Positions 14,160 to 35,390 of a stretch of DNA of 64,000 nt are shown here, in pieces. How positions within the stretch are numbered: position 1 is the first letter of the stretch; the number at the start of each line of letters is the position of its first letter. Under the pieces are notes generated by a model. The model saw only the letters and a program-made list of their open reading frames with translations. It was not told the DNA's origin and ran no database searches. A program made the translations under genes and the position numbers. This DNA comes from an uncultured Nitrososphaerota archaeon (lineage in GTDB: Archaea; Thermoproteota; Nitrososphaeria; Nitrososphaerales; Gagatemarchaeaceae): the NCBI GenBank assembly GCA_963718895.1, contig CAVRAG010000007.1, forward strand, positions 448,001 to 512,000, written 5' to 3'.

Positions 14160-15359
14160 GTGCGATTGGCGGACCAGCAGCTCCAGACGGAAGACTGGAT
14201 TCTCTTCTCGAGCACCGTCCTGGGCACCCTGGGGATGGTGGCGACCAGCAACCCGATGTACTACTTCTATGGGCTGACGGTCGGCGCGTCGAGCAAGGCC
14301 CTCCTCTCGCTCGGTCCAAACTGGAGGAGTTGGGAGGACTGGCTCCTCTTCGCCGGAGCGTTCTCAGGTTCCATTGGGTCCTCCCTGAGCGGGAACAACG
14401 AGTACATGCTGTACGGGCTCATCCTGGGGGCCATAGGCAAGTCGCTGCCGTCGCTCGCACAGTACCACAACAGCCTCGAGGACTGGCTGCTGTTCCTGAT
14501 ACCTCTGCTGACCGGCATCGGATCTGCGCTGACCTCTCAGCAGGGCCTCGCGATGGTAGGTCTCTTCTTCGGGATGATCGGCAAGTCGCTGGCCAGCTTC
14601 AACCCGGCCGCCGACGGCGGGCCGCAGCCGCCCCCTGTCCCTTCAGCCGGTCCGACTCCCCAGCCTTCGGGCTTCGCCGGGAACCGTAACTATATCTTCT
14701 GGAACCAGTGCGTGCCGCTGGTCAACCCCTCGGTCACGTTCACGGCAGCGACCGACATGAGGGCGAGCGGAAACTGGGACCTGCAGGTGAACGCCTACGC
14801 TCCGTCCGGGGCCGACGCATACATGCAGTTCGTCATCGCCGTCACCTCATCCGGGGAGGTTCAGTGGTCCATCGAGAACTGGCCGCTATCAGGCAACAAC
14901 CTGTTCAATACTTGCGACCAGCCTCTGTACAAGCTGCCCTCCGGTTTTCTGCCCAAGGGGTACTCGATCGGGGTGAAGATGAGCACAGACCCGAACACTG
15001 GCAACGTCACCTCTCTGGAATTCAGCGTCAGCGACGGGACCGGCGCCCAGGTCGCGCGCGTCACGGTCCCGCTCAACTCGAAGCTCCCCCTCTGCAGCGG
15101 CAGCTGGAACGACTCCTATCTCTCACAGGTGATAGGCTTCGAGCCCAACATAGTCGGCTACAACGGCGGGGTGGCGGTGGCCTTCTCCTCCGGGAGTCTC
15201 GGTAGCCTGGCTTGCGCAGCTGACTCGATCGCCCCCAGTTCCTCGATTCCAGCGTGCGCCGAGACGAATGCTGGTACAGTGGAGGACTCGAACCTCCAGT
15301 ATTCGGTCGCCGTTCAGGTCTCTCGCTCTCTGGTCACAGTGAGCAGTTTCGTCCCGTGA
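14160..15359 (+). CDS. Membrane protein with three 48-aa hydrophobic repeats, Pro-rich linker and probable extracellular beta-rich domain
   Basis: EDW.LF repeats at 14190, 14334, 14478; PQPPPVPSAGPTPQP linker. Confidence 0.75.
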   Translation: MRLADQQLQTEDWILFSSTVLGTLGMVATSNPMYYFYGLTVGASSKALLSLGPNWRSWEDWLLFAGAFSGSIGSSLSGNNEYMLYGLILGAIGKSLPSLAQYHNSLEDWLLFLIPLLTGIGSALTSQQGLAMVGLFFGMIGKSLASFNPAADGGPQPPPVPSAGPTPQPSGFAGNRNYIFWNQCVPLVNPSVTFTAATDMRASGNWDLQVNAYAPSGADAYMQFVIAVTSSGEVQWSIENWPLSGNNLFNTCDQPLYKLPSGFLPKGYSIGVKMSTDPNTGNVTSLEFSVSDGTGAQVARVTVPLNSKLPLCSGSWNDSYLSQVIGFEPNIVGYNGGVAVAFSSGSLGSLACAADSIAPSSSIPACAETNAGTVEDSNLQYSVAVQVSRSLVTVSSFVP

Positions 15360-15383: not shown

Positions 15384-15401
15384 GCGCCGGGAGTGGGATT
15401 T
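15384..15401 (-). repeat. att core: 18-bp duplicate of the tRNA-Ser 3' end
   Basis: gcgccgggagtgggattt identical to 35273-35290. Confidence 0.92.
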
Positions 15402-15403
15402 TA

Positions 15404-15446
15404 GCGTCTAATTAGACGCCCGAACACAGGATTTCTTGACGTTTCC
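15404..15446. repeat. Left imperfect terminal inverted repeat (pairs with 35234-35276), including a 16-bp perfect palindrome
   Basis: Reverse complement ggaaacgtcaagaaatcctgtgttcgggcgtctaattagacgc vs ggaaacgtataaaaatgtggtgtttgagcgtatagataagcgc, 30/43 ungapped. Confidence 0.7.
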
Positions 15447-15650
15447 TGGCATCCTGCACATTCTTGCCCAAGGCGTATTCGGATGGAGTCCGTTCCACTC
15501 ATTCTGACTTGCAATCTAACAAAGAGTGATTAGTAAGTAGCTCCCGTAACGGACGGCGGCACCCGCTCCGAAGACCACAAGAGATATCGAACGAAACTGG
15601 TCTGGCAACCCCAAGGAGACAGTCTGGTTTATTTCGAAGCCTATGCCCCC

Positions 15651-15968
15651 GTGTTGGTAGTTTGGGTTGTAGATGACAGGGACGAAAAAAGGGTGAACCC
15701 TATCGCCAGGACCAATGCCGACTTTCGCTTCCACCTCGCGGCGCCGACGGTGAGGACGTTCGAACTGGTCTATTCAGGAGGGAGGACCGACATATTGCTT
15801 TCAGCGGAGACGGTGGAGGACATGAGGAAGTATGCAGGGCTGCTCAGCTTGGTGTACGGAGGAATGAAGTTCGAGAGTGCTGAACCTCATCCTGATTTCT
15901 TGAGAGAGTTGCCTTCCACTGTGGGCCTGACTTCCCGGCGTTTTTCGAGGTTCGGACAAAAGTATTAA
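15651..15968 (+). CDS. Hypothetical protein resembling the N-terminal accessory domain of coupling-protein-like ATPases
   Basis: FELVYSGGRTDILLSAE...LVYGGMKFE pattern; frame open back to 15537; ends inside the 26-bp site. Confidence 0.5.
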   Translation: MLVVWVVDDRDEKRVNPIARTNADFRFHLAAPTVRTFELVYSGGRTDILLSAETVEDMRKYAGLLSLVYGGMKFESAEPHPDFLRELPSTVGLTSRRFSRFGQKY

Positions 15969-15975
15969 TCAGGAA
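15950..15975 (+). repeat. Repeated site, copy 1 (gttcggacaaaagtattaatcaggaa)
   Basis: 25/26 identical to the reverse complement of 20381-20406. Confidence 0.85.
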
Positions 15976-15976
15976 A

Positions 15977-16480
15977 TTGCCGCCGCGAGCTACGAATTGG
16001 TCTGACATGGTCCCCCAGCTCCAAGATCGTTGTTTGGCGGGATTCATGGACCTAGCTGAGAAGGTAAGCGGGGGGCTGTTCGTGGCTGCTTGGGTCGTCT
16101 TTGCCTTCGATATCATCGGGTACTGGTATAATGGGATCACCTTTGTGCTGCTCTTTCTGCTGAGCGGTCTCATATTCGGTTTTGACTTCTTCACCAAGAG
16201 GACGAGGCCCCAGAGGAGAAGCAAGGCCATTGCCGCCTGCATAGTCATCGGGATCTTCCTGTTCTTCTTCGGCCCCGACCTGCAAACGGGAGTGCTCCCG
16301 AACGGTCAAGACAGCGGCTTGATCTGCAACGGCAATGACACCAACTGCTCCGGCATCACTCAGCTACAATCGGTCACGGAATACCTCTGGTGCTGGGGGC
16401 CGGAGTACAACATCGCGCTGCCTCCCACAGTCGAGTTCGTGGTGACGTTCGGATGCCTGCCCAACTTCCCTGTGACATGA
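15977..16480 (+). CDS. Cargo membrane protein (3 TM) with Cys-containing C-terminal domain
   Basis: Hydrophobic helices followed by CNGNDTNC...GCLP. Confidence 0.65.
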   Translation: MPPRATNWSDMVPQLQDRCLAGFMDLAEKVSGGLFVAAWVVFAFDIIGYWYNGITFVLLFLLSGLIFGFDFFTKRTRPQRRSKAIAACIVIGIFLFFFGPDLQTGVLPNGQDSGLICNGNDTNCSGITQLQSVTEYLWCWGPEYNIALPPTVEFVVTFGCLPNFPVT

Positions 16481-16575
16481 TCAACGATGAACTCGTATGC
16501 GCCGCTTTTCTCAGTGACGGTCACCGGTCGAGAGCCGGATTTGGTCTTTGTACCCTTAGAACATTGTGACGGACA

Positions 16576-16812
16576 TCAAGATCCTTCGCAGCTCCAGACT
16601 CTTTCCGGGCGGGACGAACCCACGGACAGCGCCAGCGCCTGGCAGATGGCCTTGACCGCCATGGCAGATCTCACTGTCTCGTTGGTGACCTCGATCCAGC
16701 GGATTCCTGCCCTGTAATAGAAATCCACCTTGGAGTGGTCGTGAATTGAACTCTTTGCCCCTGATATTCCTATAACTATTCGCTTCTCTCTGCTGACCAC
16801 GAGGTCAGGCAG
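16576..16812 (-). pseudogene. Start-less duplicate of the C-terminal 78 codons of the nuclease at 18085-18603
   Basis: Ungapped, 60/78 aa identical; the IEV glutamate is replaced by Gly. Confidence 0.8.
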
Positions 16813-16832
16813 GGATGCTTGCATCCCGAGTC

Positions 16833-18026
16833 TTAAGGACTCAGGGCGAATGCCGTAGAGTTGACCATGAAGCAGTATGCGTACGGAGACCCCGTGTCGC
16901 CAGGTACACTGAACATGCAGTTGTCCCCCGATGGTTCCCCAGACTTCCCGGAGTACGGGTACCAGACCGTTATGGTGTAGCTCTTGGCGCTCCAGGGTCC
17001 CGAGGATGGGACCTGGGCGGTGCATCCAGAGGTCGAAGCGGCCTGGGCGGCGCAGTTGAAGATGAACGCCTGCGAGAACCCCGAGGCGGTACATGGGACT
17101 GGATTGTTGTTCTCCGCGCAGCCTCCTCCGTTGGCTAGGAAGCTCCCCACCTCTGGTAGGTTGTGTGACGCCACGACAGAAAAGTGCAGAATGGTCAACT
17201 GGCCCCACTCGTCGCCGGCCACCAGAGTGTAGTTCGCGGGCAGGGACGACCCGAGTGAATTGTAGCCCAATCCAGCGGTGGAGTTAGCGGCGTAGATGCT
17301 CTCCTGTACGGCCATCCTCGTTGGGAATGTTCCCTTGGCTAAGGACTCGGTGTTGTTCGCAGTGTACGTGCACACCCCCGAGTTGCACACGGGCGGCGGT
17401 TGAGCGCCCGGGACGGCGTAATAGCCGGCGTAGGTCCCGTTGTCACGTCCAGCGAGCAGGGAGTAGCTGGTGATGCTGTGCAGGGGGTAGTACTGGTTGC
17501 CGACCGAGACGCCGTCGGAGACACATTCCACAAGGGCCCACACCGAAAGCGGCTTCCCTGCACTGGAGAGGTTGTTCAGCCCATACGTCCCCCTGAAGAC
17601 GCCTATGCCGACCGGAAAGAATAGCTTGTTGGTACTGTTGCCAAGGTCGCACGGTCCAGCGCTCAAGCCACCGATCGCCCAGGCGTTGGACGCGGTCAAG
17701 TTGTTCGCAGTGGGTAGGGTGTTCAGGACCGAGGTGGTGATGTGGATGGCGTCCTGGCTGGGTATCATCGTCGAATTGACCGACAACGTGAGTTTCAGGC
17801 CCAAAGATGACGAATTGGTGGTTACGGTCGCTGATCCGGGTCCAGTGTAGCTTGTTGTCTCGGTGCCTTGTGAGGACGACGCGAGGGAAACAGCCGAAGA
17901 GGAGCTACTGCTCTTGGATGCGCTCGGCGAAGAAAACGTAACGAAGGCGAGCGTCCCTGTGGCGACGACGATTATCACTGCGACGACGATAACGGTCGTA
18001 CCTATTGCTTCCCTTGCACGCCTCAA
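16833..18026 (-). CDS. Cargo: membrane-anchored Ser/Thr-rich surface protein (paralog of 19512-20339)
   Basis: N-terminal hydrophobic anchor, Ser linker, NNLTASNAW, PVGIG, YTLVAGDEWG, many N-x-S/T sequons and Cys. Confidence 0.8.
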   Translation of the reverse strand: MRRAREAIGTTVIVVAVIIVVATGTLAFVTFSSPSASKSSSSSSAVSLASSSQGTETTSYTGPGSATVTTNSSSLGLKLTLSVNSTMIPSQDAIHITTSVLNTLPTANNLTASNAWAIGGLSAGPCDLGNSTNKLFFPVGIGVFRGTYGLNNLSSAGKPLSVWALVECVSDGVSVGNQYYPLHSITSYSLLAGRDNGTYAGYYAVPGAQPPPVCNSGVCTYTANNTESLAKGTFPTRMAVQESIYAANSTAGLGYNSLGSSLPANYTLVAGDEWGQLTILHFSVVASHNLPEVGSFLANGGGCAENNNPVPCTASGFSQAFIFNCAAQAASTSGCTAQVPSSGPWSAKSYTITVWYPYSGKSGEPSGDNCMFSVPGDTGSPYAYCFMVNSTAFALSP

Positions 18027-18055
18027 GCCGATTCTTTGGTTAGGACCCCAGCGTT

Positions 18056-18078
18056 TGATTAATAGTTATGTCCGAACG
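18056..18078 (-). repeat. Repeated site, copy 2 (cgttcggacataactattaatca)
   Basis: 22/23 identical to 20385-20407; starts a few nt after the nuclease stop and precedes the cargo gene. Confidence 0.85.
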
Positions 18079-18084
18079 ATACCG

Positions 18085-18603
18085 TCAAGCCTCTTCGCAG
18101 CTCCAGATTCTTTCCAGACGGGACGAACCGACAGACAATGCGAGCGCCTGGCAGATGGATTTGACCGCCTCGGCTGATTTCACTGTATCGTTAGTGACCT
18201 CAATCCAGCGGATGTCGTGCTTGTAATAGAAATCCACCTTGGAGCGGACGTGAATCGAGCTCTTCGTACCTGATACTTCTATTACGACACGCCTCTCGCG
18301 GCTCACCACAAGGTCAGGAAGATACACTCTCGGGAGAGCATCGCCGCCACAGCTTTCGCAAGCGACTGAAGGTAGAGTGTCGTGAGGACCTATGATTGGA
18401 GCATCGGTGCGTTCGACGGAGAACTCACGCCCGCATTTGGAGCACTTCATTGAAGACCAGTCCACTATCCTGCAGTCGCGCTCCGCCGCTATGCCGTACC
18501 AGTTGAGGGAGGCGAGGAACGAGGCTTCGGAGTCGGTCTGCGAGACCCTGAATTCTGAGCGATTCCTTGAGAATCTGTTGCTCGTCGGAGGAGATGTGGT
18601 CAT
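18085..18603 (-). CDS. Putative PD-(D/E)XK (DUF559/Vsr-like) nuclease with CxxC..CxxC zinc ribbon
   Basis: CSKC, CESC, YLPDLVV, VIEVSG, SIH; ATG overlaps the HNH stop (ATGA). Confidence 0.65.
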   Translation of the reverse strand: MTTSPPTSNRFSRNRSEFRVSQTDSEASFLASLNWYGIAAERDCRIVDWSSMKCSKCGREFSVERTDAPIIGPHDTLPSVACESCGGDALPRVYLPDLVVSRERRVVIEVSGTKSSIHVRSKVDFYYKHDIRWIEVTNDTVKSAEAVKSICQALALSVGSSRLERIWSCEEA

Positions 18604-19235
18604 TTGATTTGGACGATCTCCAACGCATTCTTTTTGTGGGGACAGCCGTGATAGTGAGACTTGGCAAAATTGCAGTTGTGGCACAACACTTGGAAGCCTT
18701 CGGGGTACCCGTGGAGCTTGAGCCATTGCTCTATTGTGCCCTTGAAGGTCTTACGATGCTTACAGCCATCATTGTAGATATGGTCAATGGCAAGAAACTC
18801 AATGGTTCCTTCCCCGCAACAGGAACAATGAGGTGGATCTCCACCATAGTGAAGCATGGCAGCGGTTCGAATTTTATGACGGCTCCTCTTAGCGAACTCG
18901 CGTCGCATTTCGGGACGTCGCGAGAAGTACTGCTCTCTCCCGTAGAGGTTCTTGTGAGCGTTAGAACAGTATTTTCTTGTTGGCCAAGTTGAAATGAATG
19001 CGACGCCGCAATACTTGCAAACACATGATCTGGTCCACGACTTCCTAGGACCTTGGATTACTCCGGCGACGCGCAAACTATGTAACTTGTTCTTGATTGA
19101 AAGTTGGTTTCGACCCACCAATCTGGCCGTTTCGTCTAGTGTTGCCGTCTTGTAGCAACCCAGCAGAATTTGGACTTGTTCGTCGGTCCAATAGTATGGG
19201 TAAGAGTGGATTTCGCTGAATCGCGCCGATGTCAT
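18600..19235 (-). CDS. HNH endonuclease with N-terminal HTH-like and zinc-finger modules
   Basis: WTDEQVQIL, CKYC..RKYCS, CSCCGE..LAIDHIYNDG..FQVLCHNCN; lower GC. Confidence 0.8.
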   Translation of the reverse strand: MTSARFSEIHSYPYYWTDEQVQILLGCYKTATLDETARLVGRNQLSIKNKLHSLRVAGVIQGPRKSWTRSCVCKYCGVAFISTWPTRKYCSNAHKNLYGREQYFSRRPEMRREFAKRSRHKIRTAAMLHYGGDPPHCSCCGEGTIEFLAIDHIYNDGCKHRKTFKGTIEQWLKLHGYPEGFQVLCHNCNFAKSHYHGCPHKKNALEIVQIK

Positions 19236-19238
19236 GAG

Positions 19239-19481
19239 TCACTGTGCTCCCGTCTGCTGAATCTCTCCGGGTTGCTCGGACTTGTGGTCGTTCGACTCCT
19301 CCCCTGTTTCTATTACATCCGCCTTCTCGGGTAGCTGCACGATCCCGAGATACCTCGTAACTACACGCCCGTCGACCCTGTAGACCTCCTGAGCGAAGGC
19401 GTAGGGGCCGGTCCTAGCCGCCTTTGGATAGATCCTGCCGTTGATCCGCTTCCTGTAGAAGACTGTGGCGCACAAATCCAC
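19239..19481 (-). CDS. Small basic protein, putative DNA-binding (DUF6788-like pattern)
   Basis: GPYAFAQEVYRVDGRVVTRYLG. Confidence 0.6.
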   Translation of the reverse strand: MDLCATVFYRKRINGRIYPKAARTGPYAFAQEVYRVDGRVVTRYLGIVQLPEKADVIETGEESNDHKSEQPGEIQQTGAQ

Positions 19482-19511
19482 CGCTATGCTGCGAGGGCAA
19501 TTAAGCCCCCA

Positions 19512-20339
19512 TCAAGAGACGGTGAAGTACGCTATGGCCGAGGTGCCCCATTCGTCCTCCGCCAGGACCGTGTACGTCCCCTTTGGGAAGCTCGTGAAAC
19601 CGCCGCCGTTCTGGCTCCAATACCCTCCAGCTGTCACTTCGACGGATACTTTCTCGGTCAGGCACGGGCCGGTCCCGCAGGACCCGTAGACCATGGCTGA
19701 GTCATTCATGGGCTGGAAGACGTACCTGGCAATATCGGAGAGCCCTGCGGGACAGCCGAAGGTGGCTCCCGGGTTGACGAGGTCCAGGAACTTGGCTAGG
19801 GTCATGTTGGAGGAAGCATAGTGCCCCTCGGCGATTGCCAGCCCGACGGGGTAGTTACCGGGCCAGCAGGGAGGTCCGTTCAAGCCGTTAAGCGTGAGCG
19901 GCCATTCGTTCGCTGCCGTCAGATTGTTCGTGGTGGCGAGGGTGCTGCGTTCGTCGACGGTGACGCTCACCATGATGCCGCTCGCCGAGGACGATGAGGC
20001 GTTCAGAGAGAGCTGGAGCTGCAGGTTGTTCGCAGAGTCGACGACAGCTTTCGCCGTGTGGGTCGGTTCAGCCGTTACCGAGTAGCTTACGCTCGAGCTA
20101 CTGCTGACCGGCGTGGACGCAGTGGCGAAGGAGATGGAGTAGCCTGTGACGTCCCTCCATGTGCCTCCGACTCCGAAGCCCTCGTATGTCACTGACCCAT
20201 ATCGCAGAAAGTTGCAGCCGTTCGCGGGACAGGCGAATGCTCCCGGAGGGGGCGCATAATAGACAACAGGGACGAGGAACAGGAAGGCAAGGATGAATGC
20301 GATAGCAGCTCCAACAGCGACCTTTCGATTCACCTTCAT
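19512..20339 (-). CDS. Cargo: membrane-anchored surface protein (two-module chimera)
   Basis: N-module LFLVPVV..CP..C..SVTY like 25934-26221; C-module NNLTAANEW, YPVGLA, YTVLAEDEWG like 16833-18026. Confidence 0.8.
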   Translation of the reverse strand: MKVNRKVAVGAAIAFILAFLFLVPVVYYAPPPGAFACPANGCNFLRYGSVTYEGFGVGGTWRDVTGYSISFATASTPVSSSSSVSYSVTAEPTHTAKAVVDSANNLQLQLSLNASSSSASGIMVSVTVDERSTLATTNNLTAANEWPLTLNGLNGPPCWPGNYPVGLAIAEGHYASSNMTLAKFLDLVNPGATFGCPAGLSDIARYVFQPMNDSAMVYGSCGTGPCLTEKVSVEVTAGGYWSQNGGGFTSFPKGTYTVLAEDEWGTSAIAYFTVS

Positions 20340-20380
20340 ACTACTGTCCTCATCCCAGAATAGAGGTCATGATAGGTCGA

Positions 20381-20406
20381 TTCCTGATTAATAGTTTTGT
20401 CCGAAC
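20381..20406 (-). repeat. Repeated site, copy 3 (gttcggacaaaactattaatcaggaa)
   Basis: Inverted relative to copy 1 and direct relative to copy 2; upstream of cargo 19512-20339. Confidence 0.85.
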
Positions 20407-20476: not shown

Positions 20477-22858
20477 GTGTCCCGCACAATCGACGACGAG
20501 GAGATGATATTCCACGCGCTCTTCATCGGCTCAACCGGCGCTGGAAAGACGAACGCGATGCTGTTCTGGCTGCGCAGGCTCTTCTCCAACAGGAAGGACG
20601 TCGCTCTCGTCCTCATCGACCCCCACGGGGATGCCGCCGTCGATCTCGTGCGCCTCATCCCGAAGTCTGAGAGGGAGAGGATCACGATACTCGACCCGAC
20701 CTACGTATCGTTCGGGCTGAACCCGCTCTCGCTCCCAGCCAGTATCGATGGTTTGAACAGAGTCCAGATACTCCAGACCCAAGTGGAGGAGCTCTCCGCC
20801 CTCCTCTCCGACGTCTTCAACACCGACGCGGCCACCGCCCCTAGGCTGATGTGGGTCTTCAAGGGCGCCCTCTACTACCTCTACACTCTCGACGACAACC
20901 CCACCTTCAGGGACCTCTACCGCATCCTCGTAGACTTCATCTCGATGCCTCGGTCGGAGATCGAGTGGATGCTCAGGAGCAGGGAGCTGGAGGACGAGAT
21001 AATCAGGAGCACCATAGACGCCATCTCCAAGCTCCCCAAGGACGCATTCGCGCCGGTCGTCAACAGGATATCGAACTTCGTCCTCCCTCCTCAGTCGATA
21101 ACCTCCAGGACGTTCTGCTCGAGGACGAGCAAGCTCGACTTCGACGAGATGATGGTCCCGGGAAGGCTCACGATATTCAGGATAACAAAGACGCTCCCCT
21201 ACGATTTCCGGAGGCTGATCTCCGCTTCCATCGCGATGAGGTTCTACTTCACGGTGGAAAAGAGGGCGGCCAGGCTCGAGCGGGAGGGCGAGCCTCCTTC
21301 GGCGCGGACCCCGGTCGTGCTTGCGGTCGACGAGTTCCAGAACATCAGCGACCTGAAGCTGCTCGACACGATCCTCTCGGAGTCGAGGAAGTACGGCCTC
21401 TACCTGTGGATGGTTAACCAGAACATCCAGCAGATACGGCCGGAGCTCTTCAGCTCGGTGAGCGGCAACGTCGGCCCCGTCTACGCATTCAGGGTGGGGC
21501 CTGACGACGCATCGAAGATATCCGAGCTGATCTCGCCCGAAAGGAAGGATGAGGTCAGGAACGCCCTCATCTCGCTCCCGGACTACTCCTGCGTGGTGAG
21601 GAAGAGGCCCCACGGGGAGGACGTCGCTGGCAAGCCCTTGCTGCTGGAGCCGTTCCCGAGGGTGGGCGAGTGCCTGTGCGGCACGAAGGAGGTCATCGAC
21701 TACATGAAGAAGGAGGTGGAGGATAGGTATGGCGGCGCCCACGAGGCGACGGACCTGGTCTACAAGAGCCCCGGGGAGGAGATCGCGGGAAAGTCAAGCT
21801 CGAGGGTCCCGTTCACGCCGGTAACCTGGAGGATACTGACGGCCGGCTACCTCAAGCTCATGTCCGACGCCTATCCGCTCGAGTTCTCCCGCATCCGGAC
21901 CGAGTTCTTCGCGAAGCACTCGTGGCGGACCTCGGACGTACAGGAGGCCCTCAACGCCCTGGTCAACAGGGGGTTCCTCACCCAGACCTTCGCCCGTCAG
22001 GAGTACGTCATGAAGGGGAAGGACGTGAACGGCAACCCGGTCATGCTCCCGCCCGACCCCTCCGTGGCGGACCAGATGGAGAGGACGAAGACGGTAATCT
22101 ACAACCTGACGCCGCTCGCACTGGAGTACCTCCAGATGAGGGTCGGGTCGTCGAAGGCGGGGGACCCGAAGCACCTGCGGGTGATAGAAAAGCTGCTGAA
22201 GCAGGAGTACTGGACGATGGGATACTTCACCGTAGTTGACTGGGGCGAGGGCAGCGGCGGCAAGCCCGACATAGCGGTGCTGAAGCCGTGCGTGAGGGAG
22301 GTCAGGGACAGGGACGGGAACGAGCTGCGGATGCCCGACCCATACTACTGGGACTATTCGTCAAAGATCGCGGTGGAGGTCGAGATGGCTCCTCAGAAGA
22401 ACGGGGAGCAGGTCCAGAAGAACTACCGCAAGAACGCGGAGGTCTACGCCTCCATCAGGTTCGTCGTGACTTCCGACATCAACGCCAAGCAGCTACAGGA
22501 GATTCTCAGCGAGGACGTCAAGGCCGACCCCGAGAAGTACAGGATAGACAAGATCGAGTTCGAGAGCCTGAACGAAGTGGAACCGGCCAAGAGCGAGGAA
22601 CCAGCAAGCCCGCAGGTGCAGGTTCTTGAGCCTCTGGGACCGGCTGAAGAGATAGTGCTCTCCCTAGTCCTATCAGGCGGGTACACCAGCAGGGAGGAGA
22701 TCGCGAAGAAATGCAGTGATGCGGGGCTCGACGTGGGTGAGAGGTCGGTCTCCCGGTACCTCAGGAATCTGACCGAGAGAGGGCTCCTGAGGAGGGTCGG
22801 GAACGGTTACGAGCCGACGGAACTGTCGAGGAAGCTGTCTCGTCAGGATACTCTCTGA
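20477..22858 (+). CDS. VirD4/TraD/HerA-superfamily ATPase fused to putative PD-(D/E)XK and winged-helix domains
   Basis: Walker A GSTGAGKT, IDPHGD, Walker B LAVDEFQN, ESRKYG; KPDIAV..IAVEVE; C-terminal RSVSRYLRNLTERGLL. Confidence 0.88.
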   Translation: MSRTIDDEEMIFHALFIGSTGAGKTNAMLFWLRRLFSNRKDVALVLIDPHGDAAVDLVRLIPKSERERITILDPTYVSFGLNPLSLPASIDGLNRVQILQTQVEELSALLSDVFNTDAATAPRLMWVFKGALYYLYTLDDNPTFRDLYRILVDFISMPRSEIEWMLRSRELEDEIIRSTIDAISKLPKDAFAPVVNRISNFVLPPQSITSRTFCSRTSKLDFDEMMVPGRLTIFRITKTLPYDFRRLISASIAMRFYFTVEKRAARLEREGEPPSARTPVVLAVDEFQNISDLKLLDTILSESRKYGLYLWMVNQNIQQIRPELFSSVSGNVGPVYAFRVGPDDASKISELISPERKDEVRNALISLPDYSCVVRKRPHGEDVAGKPLLLEPFPRVGECLCGTKEVIDYMKKEVEDRYGGAHEATDLVYKSPGEEIAGKSSSRVPFTPVTWRILTAGYLKLMSDAYPLEFSRIRTEFFAKHSWRTSDVQEALNALVNRGFLTQTFARQEYVMKGKDVNGNPVMLPPDPSVADQMERTKTVIYNLTPLALEYLQMRVGSSKAGDPKHLRVIEKLLKQEYWTMGYFTVVDWGEGSGGKPDIAVLKPCVREVRDRDGNELRMPDPYYWDYSSKIAVEVEMAPQKNGEQVQKNYRKNAEVYASIRFVVTSDINAKQLQEILSEDVKADPEKYRIDKIEFESLNEVEPAKSEEPASPQVQVLEPLGPAEEIVLSLVLSGGYTSREEIAKKCSDAGLDVGERSVSRYLRNLTERGLLRRVGNGYEPTELSRKLSRQDTL

Positions 22859-25169: not shown

Positions 25170-25407
25170 CTATGGCAGCGAGTATGCCACAGCGAGCTCC
25201 GCCCAATCGTCACCGCTCGGTGCTGCCCACGGAGCCGTCGTGGAACCGTATGTCCAGCCTGGACCGAACTCGGCGGCAGCGTACCAACCGGTACTGCTGC
25301 CCATCATGTAATAGTACTGACCGGTCTGCCAACCACCGCCGGTCCTAGCCGCCTTAGGGTACAGCCTGCCCCTGATCCACTTTCTGTATAGGATTGTTGC
25401 GCACAAA
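25170..25407 (-). pseudogene. Chimera: 5' copy of gene 19239-19481 fused to an unrelated G/Y/W-rich tail
   Basis: 25338-25407 aligns ungapped to 19407-19476, including an exact 18-mer. Confidence 0.6.
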
Positions 25408-25603
25408 GTGAACTCTGTTGCGGCAGTCCAGATAAGCGCCCCTCATGTTATAGAAATAGGGTTCTGATTGATGGTTTACGTTGGCGTTGTCGTGGCTAGG
25501 ATGCCGAGTTTGGCGCATCGAGGCATGAAGTTCAGGGAATCGGGGCCAAACCATCCTACCTGAGGGAATTGCCTGAAATGGTAACGTAGCCCGGGCCTGT
25601 TTT

Positions 25604-25909
25604 CTACCCGTCAGTTGTGCTGACGACAACGATTCCGGAGCTAGCCGCAACGTAAAGGTCATGGTTTGAAGGGTCGTACACGAGCGATGAAGCACCCGGT
25701 ACGTTGATGCTAAGCAGCTCTGCGTTGGTCGCCCCATTGACGGCAACGACAGTTCCGCAGGCTGACATGAACGAGATTCCCCTCACTGAATCGTAGGCGA
25801 AGCCGTCGAACTCGCTTCCCGTTCCGCCCGAGCAGGGGACGGTAAAGTTCCCGACCATCGTCGTACCGTTGATCTCGGTGTTGTACCCGTAGGTGATCCA
25901 CCACGTCAT
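25604..25909 (-). CDS. Beta-propeller (YncE-like) fragment
   Basis: FAYDS..GTVVAVNGATN..LVYDPSNHDLYVA. Confidence 0.55.
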   Translation of the reverse strand: MTWWITYGYNTEINGTTMVGNFTVPCSGGTGSEFDGFAYDSVRGISFMSACGTVVAVNGATNAELLSINVPGASSLVYDPSNHDLYVAASSGIVVVSTTDG

Positions 25910-25933
25910 GGAAACCGGCGTTCAAAGAAGCCA

Positions 25934-26221
25934 CTACACGCCTGGTGCGCAGATCCACTCGTTTGCGGCTACGCTGCAGTCATGCGTCGATATCCAATAC
26001 TGCGCAGGGGTATTAGTCATCCATACTAGCACGGCTCCCCTGCTGACCAAGAAGTAGGTCACAGACACATGAGCGACGGGGGTAAAAACGAGGCCTCCTG
26101 GGCAATCCGGACAATAATAGTAGTGAATCTTCTCCGGAACGACGGGGGCGAGAAACAGCAGCGCGCCCAATCCGACGATGAGTAGCGCCATCGCCCCAGC
26201 CTTCTTCAGCGAAATCATCAT
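25934..26221 (-). CDS. Cargo: small membrane-anchored Cys-containing protein
   Basis: LLFLAPVV..CPDC..SVTYFL, similar to the N-module of 19512-20339. Confidence 0.6.
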   Translation of the reverse strand: MMISLKKAGAMALLIVGLGALLFLAPVVPEKIHYYYCPDCPGGLVFTPVAHVSVTYFLVSRGAVLVWMTNTPAQYWISTHDCSVAANEWICAPGV

Positions 26222-26310
26222 CGCGCAAGGAGAAGGGCGAGGAGTTTAGTCTTTCACATATCATTCTGGGAAATGTTGATATGTTGAGGAAGCGGGTTTC
26301 GCCATGACTT

Positions 26311-26854
26311 GTGAAACCCCGCACCATCTTCCTCTGCCTGCTGCTTGCCTTTGCCTCTCTCGAGACAGCAGTCGCCGTCATAGGCGCCTTCGCACCCGGC
26401 ACGGCCGCCCTTGGCAGCACGATGGGACTGAACGGATTACATGCGCCGACCAACCCCGCGTTTCGCTACTCTGTTCCTCTCGCGGCGGGGGGATGGATCG
26501 CGGTCGGCGCCATCCTTTTTCAGGGCCGGATAGCCAGCGGCTTCAGGCGCTCGCGGGTCAAGAGTCTCTTCGCGAGCAGGGGGTTCGGACCTGATGTCTA
26601 CGATCTCATCGATCACGATGCGCGGCGGAGGCTCCAGGATAACGCTCCTCGAGAACATGGAGACCCCGAAGAACAGGCTCGAGCTCTCCGAGCTGACCGG
26701 AATCGACTGGAGGGAGGTCGACAGGGAGGTCTCTATACTCGAGAAGTACGGGCTGGTGAAGATCTACGCGCAAACAGGGACCGTGAAGATGTACCAGGTG
26801 ACGGAGCAGGGCAAGCTGCTGATGAATCTGGTTGGAGAATTGAACGGCAAGTGA
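26311..26854 (+). CDS. Membrane-tethered winged-helix (ArsR-like) regulator, frameshifted near 26610
   Basis: Two TM helices, then MRGGGSRITLL..NRLELSELTGIDWREVDREVSILEKYGLV. Confidence 0.65.
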
Positions 26855-27579
26855 CGCGTCTTGGCTCGAGGAAGTTGCCCAGGCCCACCATCGGCATAAT
26901 CGGGGCGACCCTGCTGGTCATAATAGGTTTCGCCGTCTACTTCGCTGGGCGGTACCTTGGATTATCTCATGCCAAACCTAAAATAGTTTTGCGGCGCAAA
27001 TCTCCAGCGAAGCCTATTCAATTGCGTGGCTCTAAGATGACAGGAACAAGCTCGGGTAGGGCAGCCCTGGTTCTCATGTTAATCCTGGTCTTCGCCGTCG
27101 TTTCGTATGTACTTCTGGGCCCCGATTCCTCAGGAGGTGGTCCACCAGTAGGGGAATCTACTAGTGCCCCGACAACCAGCTCCACCACTACCTCCGCAAC
27201 AACCCATACTAAGAGTTCTGCCACGCAAAGTCAGACAACTTCTCCCGGTTCAGCCATTAATGCAGGAGGGACCAGTGGTCCACTGGGTGGATCATTCCCA
27301 AAAGAGGGCTCTTTCGAAGTGACCCTAAACTCTAGTATGTACGCTGAATTAGTCTGGAATGCGACTGGTATCATCGATGTGCATCTCTATAATACGACTG
27401 GAGGACAGGCATTCTCGAATACTGGACAGCAGTCTGGAAATTACACTTTCTGTGTTCCCACGACAGGCAGCTATGACATCAAGTTTCAAGATCCCAATGT
27501 CTTGAACAACGCGCCTGTTATCCAATCGAGCGTGTATGTGTATGAAATCAAAGGCGGCGCATGCTCCCCTTCACCATGA
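26851..27579 (+). CDS. Membrane-anchored Thr/Ser-rich surface protein (start may instead be ATG 27038)
   Basis: Hydrophobic helices, T/S linker, beta-rich C-domain. Confidence 0.6.
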   Translation: MTRLGSRKLPRPTIGIIGATLLVIIGFAVYFAGRYLGLSHAKPKIVLRRKSPAKPIQLRGSKMTGTSSGRAALVLMLILVFAVVSYVLLGPDSSGGGPPVGESTSAPTTSSTTTSATTHTKSSATQSQTTSPGSAINAGGTSGPLGGSFPKEGSFEVTLNSSMYAELVWNATGIIDVHLYNTTGGQAFSNTGQQSGNYTFCVPTTGSYDIKFQDPNVLNNAPVIQSSVYVYEIKGGACSPSP

Positions 27580-27597
27580 GGCGATTGGTGCATTTCA

Positions 27598-28863
27598 GTG
27601 AAAGCGACAAAGCAAAGGCATGATTCAGTAGACCTAGCATGGAAGCGAGTCTTCCGTGAGGCGGGCTGGTCGCTCGTTATTGTGGTCGTCCTGACATCGG
27701 GCCTGGTGGCTTGGATACTGATACCTTCGGTGGCGACAAGCCTGGAGACCGGGGTTGACGCCTACTCGAACAGCGTGGGGACCTACATTGTGGTCAATAC
27801 TGGTGGTGGTCGGTGCGTACCGGCTTTCGGAGGATGCGCCTCTCTGCTGCCTCAGAATGTCACGGATGCCATCGCCAGAATCCCGGGGGTAGAGAAGACG
27901 TACCCGATAATCCTCAATCTCACCACACTATACGTAAGGAATTCTACTGGTCAGGTCACGATGTACGAAGGCGAGACCAGCGCCCTGCTCGGCGGTCCGA
28001 AGGGCTTTCCACCAAGCCTCTTGGTTCTTGCCGCAGGAAGATATCCGAGTAACGCACCCGAGTTCGACATAAACAGGGCGCCGAACGTTCAGTTGAACGC
28101 CACAGAGGAGGTGGACATCGCATGCCAGTTCTGCCTCCACCCGGCCCAATCCCACGGAAACGTAACGGACCCCTTTGAAGCGACTGCTGTGGGGTCGCTC
28201 GCGCTCAATCCTCTGTTCGCCAATGTCTTCATTCTCTGGAACTCAACACTGATGCTTCACAAACTCGGCCCTACATTGTACAGGCAGACGTGGGATGGGA
28301 ATGGAAGCAACTACATCATAGTGAAGGTCGATAGCGTCGCTGACGTCCCACGCGTTGTCAACGCGACCCAGCAGCTTATCCAGCCACCCCAGTACGGCCT
28401 CTTCACCGTAGTCTATAACCAGGCGTTGTCTCAGAGCCTGCAGTCGTTAACCTCTCAGACCGCGCCGCTGTACGAGCTCATCGGGGCCGTTTCGCTCATC
28501 GCAGTAGCAGGAGTCTCGTTTCTGGTGTCGCTCTTGATTGCCAGAAGAAGGGACTGGGAGGCGGGCGTCTACCTCACGCAGGGCTGGAGTTGGAGAGAAG
28601 TGTACACCCTGTACTCTGCCTACTTCCTCTTCCTCTCGCTGGCCTCTTTCGCCATCGCGGCCGTCTTGTCGACGTTCGCCAGTCGCTACTTCACCGCCAC
28701 ATACAACGTGTATGGCACCTTCACCACCTTCACTGCGGCGGTCGTTCCTCTCTACCTGATCAGCGGCCTCGCATTCGCCATCGTGCTGGCCTTCCTTTCA
28801 TCATACATCATCGTCAGGAGGCAGAAGCGGATGGGACTTGACGATATCGTGAGGGAGTACTAG
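27598..28863 (+). CDS. MacB/FtsX-type ABC transporter permease
   Basis: TM1, large external domain (IARIPGVEK), IIVKVDSVADV, RRDWEAG..QGW, three C-terminal TMs. Confidence 0.85.
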   Translation: MKATKQRHDSVDLAWKRVFREAGWSLVIVVVLTSGLVAWILIPSVATSLETGVDAYSNSVGTYIVVNTGGGRCVPAFGGCASLLPQNVTDAIARIPGVEKTYPIILNLTTLYVRNSTGQVTMYEGETSALLGGPKGFPPSLLVLAAGRYPSNAPEFDINRAPNVQLNATEEVDIACQFCLHPAQSHGNVTDPFEATAVGSLALNPLFANVFILWNSTLMLHKLGPTLYRQTWDGNGSNYIIVKVDSVADVPRVVNATQQLIQPPQYGLFTVVYNQALSQSLQSLTSQTAPLYELIGAVSLIAVAGVSFLVSLLIARRRDWEAGVYLTQGWSWREVYTLYSAYFLFLSLASFAIAAVLSTFASRYFTATYNVYGTFTTFTAAVVPLYLISGLAFAIVLAFLSSYIIVRRQKRMGLDDIVREY

Positions 28864-28864
28864 A

Positions 28865-30138
28865 ATGAAGATCACACCGAGGGTGATGACCCAACGACCC
28901 GAAGGGCACTGAAACTCAGCACCAGTCGAGCGCTGCGCGAAGTAGGCTGGTCGGTCGTCATAGTCGGTGTCCTCACCTCCGGCCTCACCGCCTGGATCCT
29001 GATACCATCGATTGGCTCCACGCTCAGCTCTAATCTGACAACTTACGCCAACGGCGTGGGCACCTACATCTCTGTGGAGGGAAGCGGGGGCGCGGTCCCC
29101 CAGAGTACGATACGCAACATCTCGGCCATCCCAGGCGTCCAGGAGGTCTACCCATTCGTCGTCAATGGGACCTACTTCGTGGTCCACAACTTCAACACCA
29201 CCCTTGGTACCGGGCAATGGCATGTAATCCCCCTGGCCAGCTTCGGGGTTTCAAGCGTGCTCGTTGGCGGACCTGGCGGTTTCCCTCCTGCTCTGCTCAC
29301 CCTCTCCTCAGGCAAGGCTCCGGGAAACGAACCAGCTTTCGCCTTCGAACCCTACTTGGAGGATTCACAACCTCCCCAAACCGATGTCCAACTCGGAGTC
29401 GCCCAGGAGGTGGCAATCGGGTGCGGGGCCTGCGCCAATGTCAGCATAGTCGGTTCGCACTTTAACGCCACAGCAGTTGGCGAGGTAGCAGTAAATCCGC
29501 TATTCAGCGACATAGCCCTCTTCTGGAACTCCACGTTCATGATGAACCACCTCGGGCCGCAGCTGTACCAAGAGGAGTGGGGGAGCAACAGGAGCAACTA
29601 CCTGATAGTCAAGGTGGACAGCGTGGCCGACGTCCCGAGGGTGGGGAGCGCCATCGGCCAGCTACTCCCTCCTCCCTTCCAAGCCAACTACGACCAGGTC
29701 TTCGCCCAGGACGCCCAGAGCTTCGTGACCCAGACGGCCCCCCTGTATGAAATCATCGGGCTCATCTCCCTGGTCGCGGTCATTGCGATAACGTTCCTGG
29801 TGTCCCATCTGGTCGCGGGCAAGAGGAGCTGGGAGGCGGGGATGCTGCTGACCCAGGGGTGGAAGTGGAGGGAGCTCTACTCTCTCTTCTCGTACTACTT
29901 CCTGATGCTCTCAATAGTATCGTTTGCCTTGGCCGCCGTCATCTCCGTGGCCGCCAGCCACTTCTTCACCTCCACCTACTACATCTTCGCCCAGCAGGTG
30001 ACTGTCACGGCCGCAGCCGACCCGTTCTACGTGGTCACCGGCCTCCTACTGGCCATACTGATGTCCCCGTTCGCCTCCTGGACGGTCGTCCGAAGACTAA
30101 AGAGGATGGGGCTCGACGGAATCCTGAGGGCGTACTAG
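28865..30138 (+). CDS. Second MacB/FtsX-type permease (paralog); 5' end frameshifted or read-through
   Basis: REVGWSVVIVGVLTSGL, LIVKVDSVADVPRV, KRSWEAG..QGW, KRMGLD. Confidence 0.85.
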
Positions 30139-30139
30139 C

Positions 30140-30757
30140 ATGATCAAGCTCGAAGGGGTCTACAAGAACTACGGCGCCATCAGGGTGCTTGAGGGGATTG
30201 ACCTGCAGGTCGAGGAAGGAAAGCCGCTCTGCCTTCTGGGAAGGAGTGGCTGCGGAAAATCAACCCTCCTGAAGCTCGTCGCGCTGATAACGAGGCCGGA
30301 CAAGGGAACCCTGACCATCGACGGCAACGACGTAACCAAGATCAGCGACCCGGAGATGGATGAGTTGAGGAGGGAGAAGGTGTCTTACACCTTCCAGGAG
30401 CCACTCCTGATCCCGTACATCACCGCGCTGGAGAACGTCACAGAGGTCACCGGGGCGCCGAAGGAGAAGGCGGTGGAAGTGCTGACCCAGCTCGGCCTCG
30501 GAGACAGGCTGAGCCACCACCCAGCGAAGCTGAGCGGAGGGGAGAAGAAGAGGGTGGACGTGGCTCGGGCCATACTGAGGAACACTCACATCCTCGTGGC
30601 GGACGAGCCTCTCTCCAATCTGGATCCGGAGACAGGTGAGAAGGTGATGGCGTTGCTGAAGGCGCACGCTGAGAGGGGCGGTATCCTCGTCTACTCGTCC
30701 GTGGAGCCCTCGGAGACGAGGTACGCAGCCCAAGTCATGAATATGGAGCGCAAGTAG
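30140..30757 (+). CDS. ABC transporter ATP-binding protein (LolD/MacB-like)
   Basis: GRSGCGKS, LSGGE, VADEP. Confidence 0.92.
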   Translation: MIKLEGVYKNYGAIRVLEGIDLQVEEGKPLCLLGRSGCGKSTLLKLVALITRPDKGTLTIDGNDVTKISDPEMDELRREKVSYTFQEPLLIPYITALENVTEVTGAPKEKAVEVLTQLGLGDRLSHHPAKLSGGEKKRVDVARAILRNTHILVADEPLSNLDPETGEKVMALLKAHAERGGILVYSSVEPSETRYAAQVMNMERK

Positions 30758-30920
30758 CTTCTCTCGAGCAGAAGCTGCGAGAGAGGATGGCCAGAGACGA
30801 CTAGCGAGAGCAACAATTGAGATAGATAGTGAACTAGAGAAGGGTGCGTCGCTGTGCAGAACGGGCAGTCCGTGCAGCGCTGTGCAGTCGTTAGATCCTT
30901 GTGCAATTCGGGAGAATCTC

Positions 30921-32340: not shown

Positions 32341-32450
32341 GCATCACCCCTATCACGATTATACCCGATATTCATGGTATATAACATTTATGACCGAAAA
32401 TGCTGGCATAATCTTATATTCTGGAGCGGCAAGCGCATGCCATTAGAAAC

Positions 32451-33194
32451 ATGCCAGAAGAGACCCTCGTAGTCAACGGAAAGGAATACCTCTACTTCTC
32501 ATTCTACGATTCTGCGACCAAACAGAAGAAGCGGCTATACTGCGGACCGAAGTCCGACCCCGAGGCCAAAAAGAGGGCGGAGCTGTTCGAGGAAAGGCAC
32601 AAACTGGGCCAGCAACGAAGAAAAACGACGATCGGGCGTTATCTTAGAATCATGAGTCTGGGGGCCGAGGCCGCCATTTACAATACGGACGAAAGCAAGC
32701 AAGCTATCCAATGCCTGGTCGATGCTTTTCCTGATCTCCAGTGGGTCGGGGGTGACTACACGGCCCTGTTCGGATGGCTCAACGGGGATGAGCGGATGCT
32801 CGACAGGCTCGAAGGAGTTCGCCAGAAACTGCAGGATGACATGAAGAACATACAGGACGTCGAACCAAACTTCAGGGAATTCCTTCGAGAAGCATACCCC
32901 GATTGGTTCAACCACGTCAGATATCGGAAGAGCGAAGATGAGCAGGAGAGGCCTGAACGGGATCCCGCATGGAAGTACCACATTGACCAGAGCCCGGGCA
33001 ACATCGTTCTCGAGATGCTCAAGGGCGGAATCGACGCACACGAACACGCTCTGATGCGAATCGACACCTCTCTGGGAATCGCGCGCAACAACCATCTGGA
33101 CGCGATTGTCGAAGCAATCGAATTCCTAGGCCTCACGAAAGCAATTACAGACTCAAGAGCGGTCTTTCGGGAGGCGCTTGAACTTGCGGCCTAG
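32451..33194 (+). CDS. Hypothetical protein with N-terminal beta-sheet DNA-binding-like module
   Basis: VVNGKEYLYFSFYD..KKRLYCGP. Confidence 0.65.
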   Translation: MPEETLVVNGKEYLYFSFYDSATKQKKRLYCGPKSDPEAKKRAELFEERHKLGQQRRKTTIGRYLRIMSLGAEAAIYNTDESKQAIQCLVDAFPDLQWVGGDYTALFGWLNGDERMLDRLEGVRQKLQDDMKNIQDVEPNFREFLREAYPDWFNHVRYRKSEDEQERPERDPAWKYHIDQSPGNIVLEMLKGGIDAHEHALMRIDTSLGIARNNHLDAIVEAIEFLGLTKAITDSRAVFREALELAA

Positions 33195-33205: not shown

Positions 33206-33514
33206 TCACTCAGTCGACGTTGACTCTGACTCATGTACTCTCGTACTCTTATTCAGCATTTCTGAAACGACCTTTCTTGTGCCAGCTTTGGCCCATTCCA
33301 CTTCCTCGTTGATCTGCTTTCTGCTCTTTGTCTGCTTTTGCAGTTTAGACGTCGTCGCTTCGAGCCTGCCGAGCCTTTCCTCCCCGTAAAGCATCTGCTT
33401 GATGGCAAACCGGATGAACTCGCTCTTCGTAGCGTACTCTCCGGCTTCGACCAGCATCTCTATCCTCTGCGAGTCTTTGTCAGGAAGGTTCAGGAGCAAC
33501 TTGCTTCCCATCAT
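33206..33514 (-). CDS. Ribbon-helix-helix (CopG/Arc-like) antitoxin or regulator
   Basis: LNLP...IEMLVEAGEYATKSEFIRFAI. Confidence 0.8.
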   Translation of the reverse strand: MMGSKLLLNLPDKDSQRIEMLVEAGEYATKSEFIRFAIKQMLYGEERLGRLEATTSKLQKQTKSRKQINEEVEWAKAGTRKVVSEMLNKSTRVHESESTSTE

Positions 33515-33551
33515 CTATCACGTATAGGTAATGCATATACTTTACATATAT

Positions 33552-33965
33552 TTATGCCTTCAGAAGCTCCCTGGTCTTCCAGACCTTGAACCTTCCCTTC
33601 ACAACGTCGAAGTCTTTGTCGCTCGACCAGATGCCATCATGGTCCTTTAGGGTCAAGGCCAGAGCGACCAGAGGGATATCCGACTTGTCCCTCTTGCCTA
33701 TGAGCTCGTTGGCCTCGTTCAGTTTGCTCTCGATGATATCGTTGTTCGCGACCAGCACGGGCATCGACCTGATCAAGGCTTGAGCCTCAGAGCTGCCCAG
33801 CCGTCTCTTCGTGGTAACGATCCTGTAGATCTCCGCTAGAGTGAACTCGGTCGTGACGAATATGAGGTCGCCGGAGAAGAGAACCCTGTTCTCGAGGCCC
33901 CTGTATACCAGCGCGGAATAGAGCACCGTTGCATCCGCGAGCAGGACGCGAGGTCTGTAGGTCAT
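33552..33965 (-). CDS. PIN-domain (VapC-like) ribonuclease
   Basis: LADATVLYSAL, TLAEI, RDKSDIPLVALA, IWSSDKDF. Confidence 0.85.
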   Translation of the reverse strand: MTYRPRVLLADATVLYSALVYRGLENRVLFSGDLIFVTTEFTLAEIYRIVTTKRRLGSSEAQALIRSMPVLVANNDIIESKLNEANELIGKRDKSDIPLVALALTLKDHDGIWSSDKDFDVVKGRFKVWKTRELLKA

Positions 33966-35211: not shown

Positions 35212-35273
35212 GGTTCCCGGCGGGATTGGGGCTGGAAACGTATAAAAATGTGGTGTTTGAGCGTATAGATAAG

Positions 35274-35390
35274 CGCCGGGAGTGGGATTTGAACCCACGA
35301 CCCCACTAAAGGAGACAGGCTCACTAGCGTGAAAGCTTCCAGGCTTACGCAAACGCTGATCTGCGCCCTTCCAGGCTAGGCGACCCCGGC
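35274..35390 (-). tRNA. tRNA-Ser(GGA) with two introns (29/30 at 35345-35360; 37/38 at 35322-35336)
   Basis: Acceptor GCCGGGG/TCCCGGC, G73, T-arm GTGGG-TTCAAAT-CCCAC, long variable arm; splicing gives CAGGC-CTGGAAA-GCCTG; both introns form BHB-type motifs; TTTAAG box ~25 nt upstream. Confidence 0.9.

Follow-up and report, generated by a model that had tools for sequence, protein, structure and literature searches.

A 22-bp promoter-like motif before predicted surface-protein genes of Gagatemarchaeaceae archaea as a probable point of exchange between relatives

Shuffling of genes anchored at a promoter has been demonstrated for T4-type phages (PMC2839356). According to the available portions of the respective reports (PMC2839356, PMC4122927), these phages harbour about 50 copies of a conserved promoter per genome, termed PeSLs, which are located in hypervariable regions before genes of unknown function. 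PeSL copies are described to recombine, whereby genes are swapped, deleted or inserted, a promoter is kept before the product and mini-circles are formed (PMC2839356). Our literature search brought up no archaeal or chromosomal case of such shuffling. Here we describe a 22-bp motif, GTTCGGACAWAASTATTAATCA, in a stretch of 64,000 nucleotides (“the window”; contig CAVRAG010000007.1, positions 448,001 to 512,000) from an uncultured Nitrososphaerota archaeon of the Gagatemarchaeaceae, where three copies are carried by a 19.9-kb element integrated at a gene read as tRNA-Ser. We consider it probable that the motif is a surface-gene promoter inside which relatives exchange their flanks by host recombination, its near-identical copies being used as short homology. 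A full-text search, outside of which lay supplements and most subscription papers, found the motif in 0 papers.

By analogy, the T4-phage PeSL would be the closest working model, the motif appearing to work like a PeSL without being one. As in the phages, a repeated promoter precedes variable genes in hypervariable regions, and close relatives differ by exchanges at the motif. Unlike the PeSL, the motif resides in an archaeal chromosome and integrated elements, its predicted promoter is of the type combining a B recognition element (BRE) with a TATA box, and its cargo consists almost only of membrane-anchored proteins. In addition, folding of 50 sites gave no indication that the motif includes a stem-loop terminator. 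Mini-circles belong to the PeSL; here shuffling is deduced from assembled sequences.

Copies of the motif and their promoter-like setting

The window contains three exact matches to the motif, at 15950-15971 on the plus strand (site 1) and at 18056-18077 and 20385-20406 on the minus strand (sites 2 and 3), compared to 0 matches in 100 shuffles of the window. When extended, sites 1 and 3 make up an inverted pair of 26 nt with 96% complementarity, 4405 nt apart. A preceding sequence-only reading of this DNA had named both the three copies and the inverted pair, and in this respect it proved correct. Two look-alikes which it had listed did not stand up: that at about 16556-16575 reaches a matrix score of -11.7, compared to 41-43 for the true sites, and that at 32378-32399 scores 4.3, which is the level of the best background matches (4.9 and 4.4). 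The GTTCGG which it had pointed out in the left terminal repeat of the element is at chance level, being one of 48 such hexamers in the window.

In the whole genome 19 exact copies are present, 49 copies are found at up to three mismatches, and the motif matrix yields 70 matches above a score of 12 as opposed to one in the reversed genome; the edges of the profile are sharp at bases 1 and 22. At a matrix score of at least 14, three of 67 genome sites lie within the element and 64 outside it, which rules out the motif as an element-specific site. The genome carries about 60 motif copies, and the tRNA-Ser element is not their source. For the window alone this is deflating, the element being one carrier among many, in which no switch was found. 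Most genome copies cluster, by our own gene calls and among the calls listed, in islands rich in small toxin-antitoxin-like gene pairs. Of 22 further genomes of the genus 19 carry the motif, compared to 0 of 18 genomes outside the genus, and the viral contigs searched contained 0 copies. All 54 stretches of the genome collection with the exact motif are archaeal, five of them titled Ca. Gagatemarchaeum stordalenia, and the five sequencing runs in which at least one fifth of the sampled words occur are metagenomes of soil or peat, produced by two studies. The available main text of the Gagatemarchaeaceae genome paper (PMC10640624) contains 0 mentions of ‘promoter’ or ‘island’. An 80-nt sequence upstream of eight sites was considered as an extended site and rejected, as it is a separate repeat matching DNA behind the 23S rRNA 3' end. 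Its 47 profile matches are on contigs C4 and C8 (including G000:C8:1567914-1567996), eight of them directly followed by the motif; this repeat punctuates the islands.

The setting of the motif argues for a promoter. TATA boxes of ordinary genes in this genome are most frequent at positions -29 to -31 relative to the ATG, and the ordinary-promoter consensus learned from 1029 upstream regions, AAnnYTTAWAT, peaks at -31/-30 and lines up with motif bases 10-20. An open reading frame (ORF) with a hydrophobic N-terminus, hereafter referred to as anchored ORF, lies downstream of 243 of the 284 sites with enough downstream DNA. Its start codon is 21-37 nt past the motif in 208 of the 243 anchored cases and closer than 21 nt in 13, and a spacing of 21 nt places motif base 14 at -30. 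Within the genome 53 of 67 sites are followed by an anchored ORF, compared to 405 of 2255 ordinary first genes and five of 67 on the opposite strand. All five copies which combine the exact 5' half with a different TATA-like 3' half precede anchored ORFs. This is the geometry of archaeal BRE/TATA promoters, with a TATA-like box about 30 nt before leaderless starts and an A-rich BRE upstream, and it supports the combined BRE/TATA promoter read from the sequence before, TATTAA being located at the -30 position of ordinary TATA boxes. We regard the motif as the likely shared promoter of genes for predicted membrane-anchored surface proteins; their surface location is predicted from hydrophobicity, Ser/Thr stalks and conserved cysteines. 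One motif copy, at G000:C4:225466, shows a one-base deletion in an A run and still has an anchored ORF downstream.

The 5' half of the motif, GTTCGGACAWAA, would be recognised by an activator or by one TFB among the many paralogues, and TBP would recognise TATTAATC. As the genome holds at least 10 TFB genes (our own count from 24 domain matches), a paralogue-specific extended BRE or activator box is plausible, and one TFB or activator with a need for GTTCGGACA would define a regulon. The motif offers an unusually clean target for learning how one of about ten TFB paralogues selects its regulon, and it could serve to locate surface-protein genes in this uncultured group. For the UV-inducible ups promoters of Sulfolobus the available text describes a hexamer box upstream of the core promoter (PMC5817253). 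In both cases the core promoter is directly preceded by a conserved, non-palindromic box that marks a co-regulated gene set; unlike the ups hexamer, the present motif comprises 22 bp with almost no variation, accumulates in islands and coincides with points of exchange.

Switch of homology at the motif

The flanks of 298 distinct sites, pooled from the genome and 302 loci, were compared, with the motif itself excluded from the flank alignments. Relatives which are 90-99.8% identical on one flank turn unrelated at the motif, and identity on the unshared side stops 0-5 nt beyond it. Where one flank is at least 95% identical, identity continues across the motif in 12 pairs and breaks at it in nine; at a threshold of 90%, 13 cross and 26 break, ten of the latter being shared upstream only and 16 downstream only. 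Upstream-only sharing is exemplified by L048/L258 and L177/L248, with, e.g., 99.8% identity over 600 nt and 22/22 motif bases followed by unrelated DNA. Paralogues inside the genome also have DNA in common on one side of the motif only; thus, an 82% paralogue of site 1 at C4:275015 shares DNA only from the first motif base onward. Since upstream-only and downstream-only pairs are both present, a crossover inside the motif is needed. That genes are swapped at the site had already been proposed from the sequence, and homology between relatives indeed switches exactly at the motif. Next to the nuclease gene that adjoins site 2, cargo varies beyond a retained motif: among nine nuclease homologues with a homologous 3' end six keep the motif, 5-7 nt past the stop codon (one of the six copies is degenerate, score 9.8), with five different cargoes.

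The mechanism which we propose builds on the observed copy number, the place before anchored ORFs, the TATA-like part at -30 and the homology switch within 0-5 nt. Selection for promoter function would hold the motif copies nearly identical, and they would be the commonest sequence common to otherwise unrelated island DNA. A crossover between two copies would swap the downstream gene, or excise or insert site-to-site units, and the products would survive because a working promoter is always left. If this is true, an archaeal genus abundant in peat and acid soil renews dozens of predicted surface proteins by promoter swapping, and new genes, being swapped at a shared promoter, would be at once expressed and under common control.

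The motif might, instead, be a conserved regulon promoter only, in which case the seam would reflect alignments ending at the shared anchor together with selection for genes which keep their promoter. All of the promoter evidence is compatible with this, no site-to-site event is found between the element and its closest copy (in genome G010), and the islands are mosaic everywhere, with a small excess of breaks at the level of gaps. In a gap-level control at ≥95% identity motif-bearing gaps were broken in 14 and crossed in 22 cases (39%), as opposed to 10 and 27 for other promoter gaps (27%; p 0.33); at ≥90% the respective numbers are 41 and 23 (64%) versus 27 and 36 (43%; p 0.02). Breaks are hence only about 1.5-fold more frequent in motif-bearing gaps than in other promoter gaps. 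Within them, however, 35 of 41 breaks are at the motif, compared to 18% expected. As the gap-level excess is small and the breaks are concentrated at the motif, the latter appears to set where a crossover lands more than how often it occurs. The raw enrichment (0.43 breaks per site versus 0.0075 per 52 nt elsewhere) makes the effect look larger than it is, since breaks that fall within genes are purged. What renders a mere promoter distinctly unlikely is that identity still stopped 0-5 nt away from a motif which had been excluded from the flank alignments, and that upstream-only pairs cannot arise from a gene travelling with its own promoter.

The motif is one of several kinds of seam. Out of 50 internal block ends at ≥95% identity 39 are away from the motif: 22 fall within genes or DNA free of gene calls, 10 in promoter gaps lacking the motif, four in terminator gaps and three elsewhere in motif-bearing gaps, leaving 11 at the motif itself. 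Exchange in these islands also takes place within the nuclease gene and the small 80-aa gene, in anchor-coding regions and at tRNA attachment (att) sites. At L034:602, L053:1719 and L253:2628 as well as in L077 and L180, near-identity stops about 105-135 nt past the motif, just beyond the shared N-terminal anchor coding, which suggests in-frame swapping of outer domains.

Site-to-site units, candidate enzymes and inversion

Several points weigh against host recombination inside the motif. Both promoter and exchange are deduced from assembled sequence. The site pairs are non-independent and were selected for holding the motif; as they come from metagenome assemblies, single one-sided pairs could be misassemblies. 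None of the four differences between the element and G010, described below, has both junctions at the motif. A length of 22 bp is short for RadA-type recombination. Three of 17 pairs viewed in full contain site-to-site one-gene units whose surroundings differ, one of 996 bp at 99.8% identity, one of about 800 bp at 93% and one of 731 bp at 88%, and the presence of the 996-bp unit in two contexts, with only 36 nt compared beyond one of its ends, fits a site-specific enzyme more easily. Finally, base 13 of the motif is mismatched in 0 of 33 upstream-only pairs versus 9 of 35 downstream-only pairs and thus tends to move with the upstream flank, a hint that crossovers may favour a zone within TATTAATCA. 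Mismatches of base 10 (11 of 33 versus 10 of 35) do not sort cleanly; with the two bases in disagreement, a single crossover position could not be mapped.

A dedicated site-specific recombinase or nuclease which cuts in TATTAATCA and moves promoter-led one-gene cassettes, resembling an integron without attC, would be in line with the sorting of base 13 and with the three site-to-site units. It would also agree with a weak dyad, GTTC...GAAT, in the extended motif profile, with the position of the motif 5-7 nt past the nuclease stop and with co-oriented arrays of up to seven sites, one of them downstream of an integrase gene in G002. It is mainly the sharpness of the exchange edges (0-5 nt) and the clean 996-bp unit that keep this idea under consideration; we nevertheless judge it unlikely. 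The far ends of shared blocks, in a smaller set, reach a second site in only 1 of 15 and 1 of 7 cases, the excess of breaks in motif-bearing gaps is small at either threshold, and many other seams exist. Furthermore, none of the enzymes searched for accompanies the motif. XerA is over the cut-off in 0 of 23 genomes and a serine recombinase in three of 23, among which are none of G000, G001, G002, G010 and G013. G010, which is 77% complete, has 22 sites and no PF00589 match at E≤0.001, and the nuclease has homologues in only four of the 22 other genomes of the genus. None of PF00589, PF00239, NF040815, the element integrase and the nuclease tracks site number, other enzyme families being outside this search. 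A genus-wide cassette system, in which one 22-bp sequence would be promoter and recombination site at the same time, an enzyme would cut in the TATA box and the surface repertoire would thereby be reshuffled on the chromosome as well as on integrated elements, is to our mind a doubtful prospect as well.

A role of the element integrase in running such a system, suggested as a possibility from the sequence, is not supported. In addition to 64 of 67 sites being outside the element, the genomes with 14-20 sites contain no close relative of this integrase, and the site-rich genomes G001, G007, G011 and G013 (84-96% complete) only distant ones (30-48% at best matches). The integrase adjoins the tRNA att repeat, whose core does not resemble the motif, and it likely moves the whole element only.

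With integrons, archaeal integrons and CALINs (clusters of attC sites lacking integron integrases), as far as the available text describes them (PMC9668308), the islands have in common co-oriented arrays of short genes split by a repeated site, regions rich in toxin-antitoxin-like genes and units which appear in new contexts. The most integron-looking array seen is L180 (G002:C25:788-13850), in which seven co-oriented motif copies heading anchored-protein genes lie downstream of a 455-aa tyrosine integrase. Unlike in integrons, each gene is headed by the site, which is a predicted promoter. Folding of 50 sites gave mean z values of -0.04, -0.17 and -0.08 and hence no attC-like hairpin, a RYYYAAC box is located upstream in 8 of 50 sites, and the motif begins with GTTCGGA instead of the GTTRRRY core. 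In NCBIfam the element integrase, the only integrase of the genome scanned for the IntI-specific domain, is without a match to an IntI family at E≤0.05. A dif-type site with 11-6-11 inverted arms is not recognisable either, the extended profile showing, as read by eye, a weak outer dyad with an odd centre.

In the R64 shufflon, operated by Rci at sfx sites, repeats are placed in the coding frame and inversion swaps a protein end. An analogous switch, in which the element integrase would invert the DNA between sites 1 and 3, is suggested by the 25/26 inverted pair around 4.4 kb beside surface-protein genes and by the presence of a tyrosine integrase in the same element. Such a switch is, however, highly improbable. 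The sites in the window lie 29-74 nt before start codons and not in coding frames, no dedicated invertase is adjacent, and the att core is unlike the motif. G010 holds the block from site 1 to site 2 in the same orientation, without the site 3 segment. The contigs of four sequencing runs contain no strand-change joint among the eight joints listed, and two contigs with 0 differences, of low depth and possibly from the source study, bridge sites 2 and 3 as arranged in the window; none of the 32 contig pieces listed out of 244 bridges site 1. No inversion was seen in G010 or these contigs. It would, moreover, switch nothing, unlike in a shufflon, because each gene would stay behind a motif copy. 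The shufflon- or integron-like character attributed to the sites in the sequence-only reading, including the inversion of copies 1 and 3, is hence not sustained, given that neither inversion nor attC hairpin nor, among the enzymes searched for, a recombinase tracking the motif was found.

G010 contains the closest copy of the element, matching 15384-18113 and 25338-30759 at 98-99.8% in the same orientation. It differs from the window in four respects: a gene of 509 bp inserted into the 3' end of the nuclease gene at a distance of 36 nt from site 2; the HNH endonuclease gene; a 5.9-kb block with site 3 and the ATPase gene, located between two copies of the small 80-aa gene and absent from G010; and 950 bp which the window lacks at 25895. 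The latter loss, with one junction mid-gene (deletion junction at 25895-25899), has removed a fourth site together with the 5' part of a gene for a 391-aa anchored protein. One of the eight junctions of these differences is within 15 nt of a motif copy. In four relatives (L184, L023, L025 and L170) gene X, which ends in site 1, abuts the ATPase gene without a site; in other relatives the contents between the two genes differ, with sites at varying distances or none. The region from 15.9 to 20.4 kb is therefore a variable gap, and the view of sites 1 and 3 as terminal inverted repeats of a 4.4-kb insertion is rejected. In our reading, the element would carry three promoter-led units in this gap, and sites 1 and 3 are likely inverted because two promoter-led genes point inward. 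In L170, at about 17500-19500 (G010:C3, about 995.5-997.5 kb), ORF fragments which by eye resemble a group II intron reverse transcriptase adjoin a motif copy.

The tRNA-Ser element and its genes

An 18-bp direct repeat marks the two ends of the element; its only matches in the window are at 15384 and 35273. The left att repeat occupies 15384-15401, and the right one is part of the target tRNA gene (35273-35390, minus strand), in which visual inspection suggests a tRNA-Ser(GGA) interrupted by two introns, one of them apparently at a non-canonical place. ARAGORN run with introns calls this tRNA and labels it Thr; default ARAGORN and Rfam yield 0 tRNAs in the window, Rfam giving 0 matches overall. 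Among the genome tRNAs listed there is no other convincing tRNA-Ser(GGA). Together with att repeats from a tRNA 3' end, the tyrosine integrase gene (33976-35208, minus strand, start inferred; PHROG integrase E 6.8e-14, Pfam below cut-off) identifies the element as tRNA-targeted. It resembles the tRNA-targeted integrative and conjugative or cryptic elements of Thaumarchaeota (PMC6563490, as described in the available text) in its size of about 20 kb, its att repeats, its tyrosine integrase and a single conjugation-type ATPase. The available text of that paper contains 0 mentions of ‘promoter’, and the present element only carries the motif.

Backbone gene X (15651-15968, plus strand), without family match, has its stop codon inside site 1. 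The latter heads cargo 1 (16046-16480, plus strand), a predicted membrane protein of 144 aa with a hydrophobic N-terminus; a homologue search for it returned the motif in three of four rows, the window itself included. At 16576-16812 (minus strand) a nuclease 3' fragment follows, a second allele of 237 nt at 81% which also occurs in G010; there is no site after it, the best motif score there being -23. Cargo 2 (16833-18026, minus strand; 397 aa) comprises an N-terminal anchor, a Ser/Thr-rich stalk and a Cys-containing domain, and its nearest Atlas clusters, which constitute weak evidence, are unnamed Nitrososphaerota proteins. Site 2 is situated 29 nt before its start and 7 nt past the stop of the nuclease gene (18085-18606, minus strand, start codon inferred). 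This putative PD-(D/E)XK/DUF559-like nuclease contains a predicted zinc ribbon; the Zn-ribbon matches are below the cut-off, and DUF559-like is an Atlas lead only (score 0.87).

The HNH endonuclease gene (18600-19235, minus strand; PHROG HNH E 1.6e-5) is absent from this place in G010 and in the contigs of runs X2, X4 and X5; it behaves like a homing endonuclease gene, and its protein has an N-terminal D5-like regulator match. Next to it lies a small 80-aa gene (19239-19481, minus strand), a partial second copy of which is found at 25338-25445. Its protein and that of 32451-33194, both without family match, begin with a short beta-rich basic segment reminiscent of excisionase or arm-binding domains. 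Cargo 3 (19512-20339, minus strand; 275 aa) consists of an N-terminal anchor and a domain of about 185 aa with four invariant or nearly invariant cysteines, for which none of 91 homologues provides a functional name. None of the three cargoes has a family match over the cut-off in Pfam, NCBIfam and PHROG scans. Site 3 is divergent from the backbone gene (20477-22858, plus strand) for a VirD4/TraD/HerA-like ATPase with a C-terminal winged helix (Pfam TraG-D_C, DUF87 and T4SS-DNA_transf over cut-off). Among the 25 proteins scanned no other transfer gene was recognised.

On the minus strand the order of site, cargo, small gene, HNH, nuclease, site, cargo and nuclease 3' copy is present just as the sequence-only reading had laid it out, and each motif copy points, as it had stated, into a gene for a membrane-anchored protein, all three ORFs having a hydrophobic N-terminus. 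As to its description of repeated modules with different cargo, the cargoes are not all unrelated: a domain is common to cargo 2 and cargo 3 (27% over 193 aa, E 2e-10).

Beyond the left att repeat and thus external to the element, a gene for a 399-aa membrane protein without family (14160-15359) is absent in G010, and runs X1 and X4 differ before 15378; the left flank therefore varies independently. Just inside the repeat, a perfect 16-bp palindrome at 15404-15419 is possibly an integrase accessory site. The RHH and PIN gene pair adjoining the integrase gene (33206-33965) is likely a toxin-antitoxin module. At 27598-30757 the element encodes two paralogous FtsX-family permeases and an ABC ATPase, which are 98% identical in G010.

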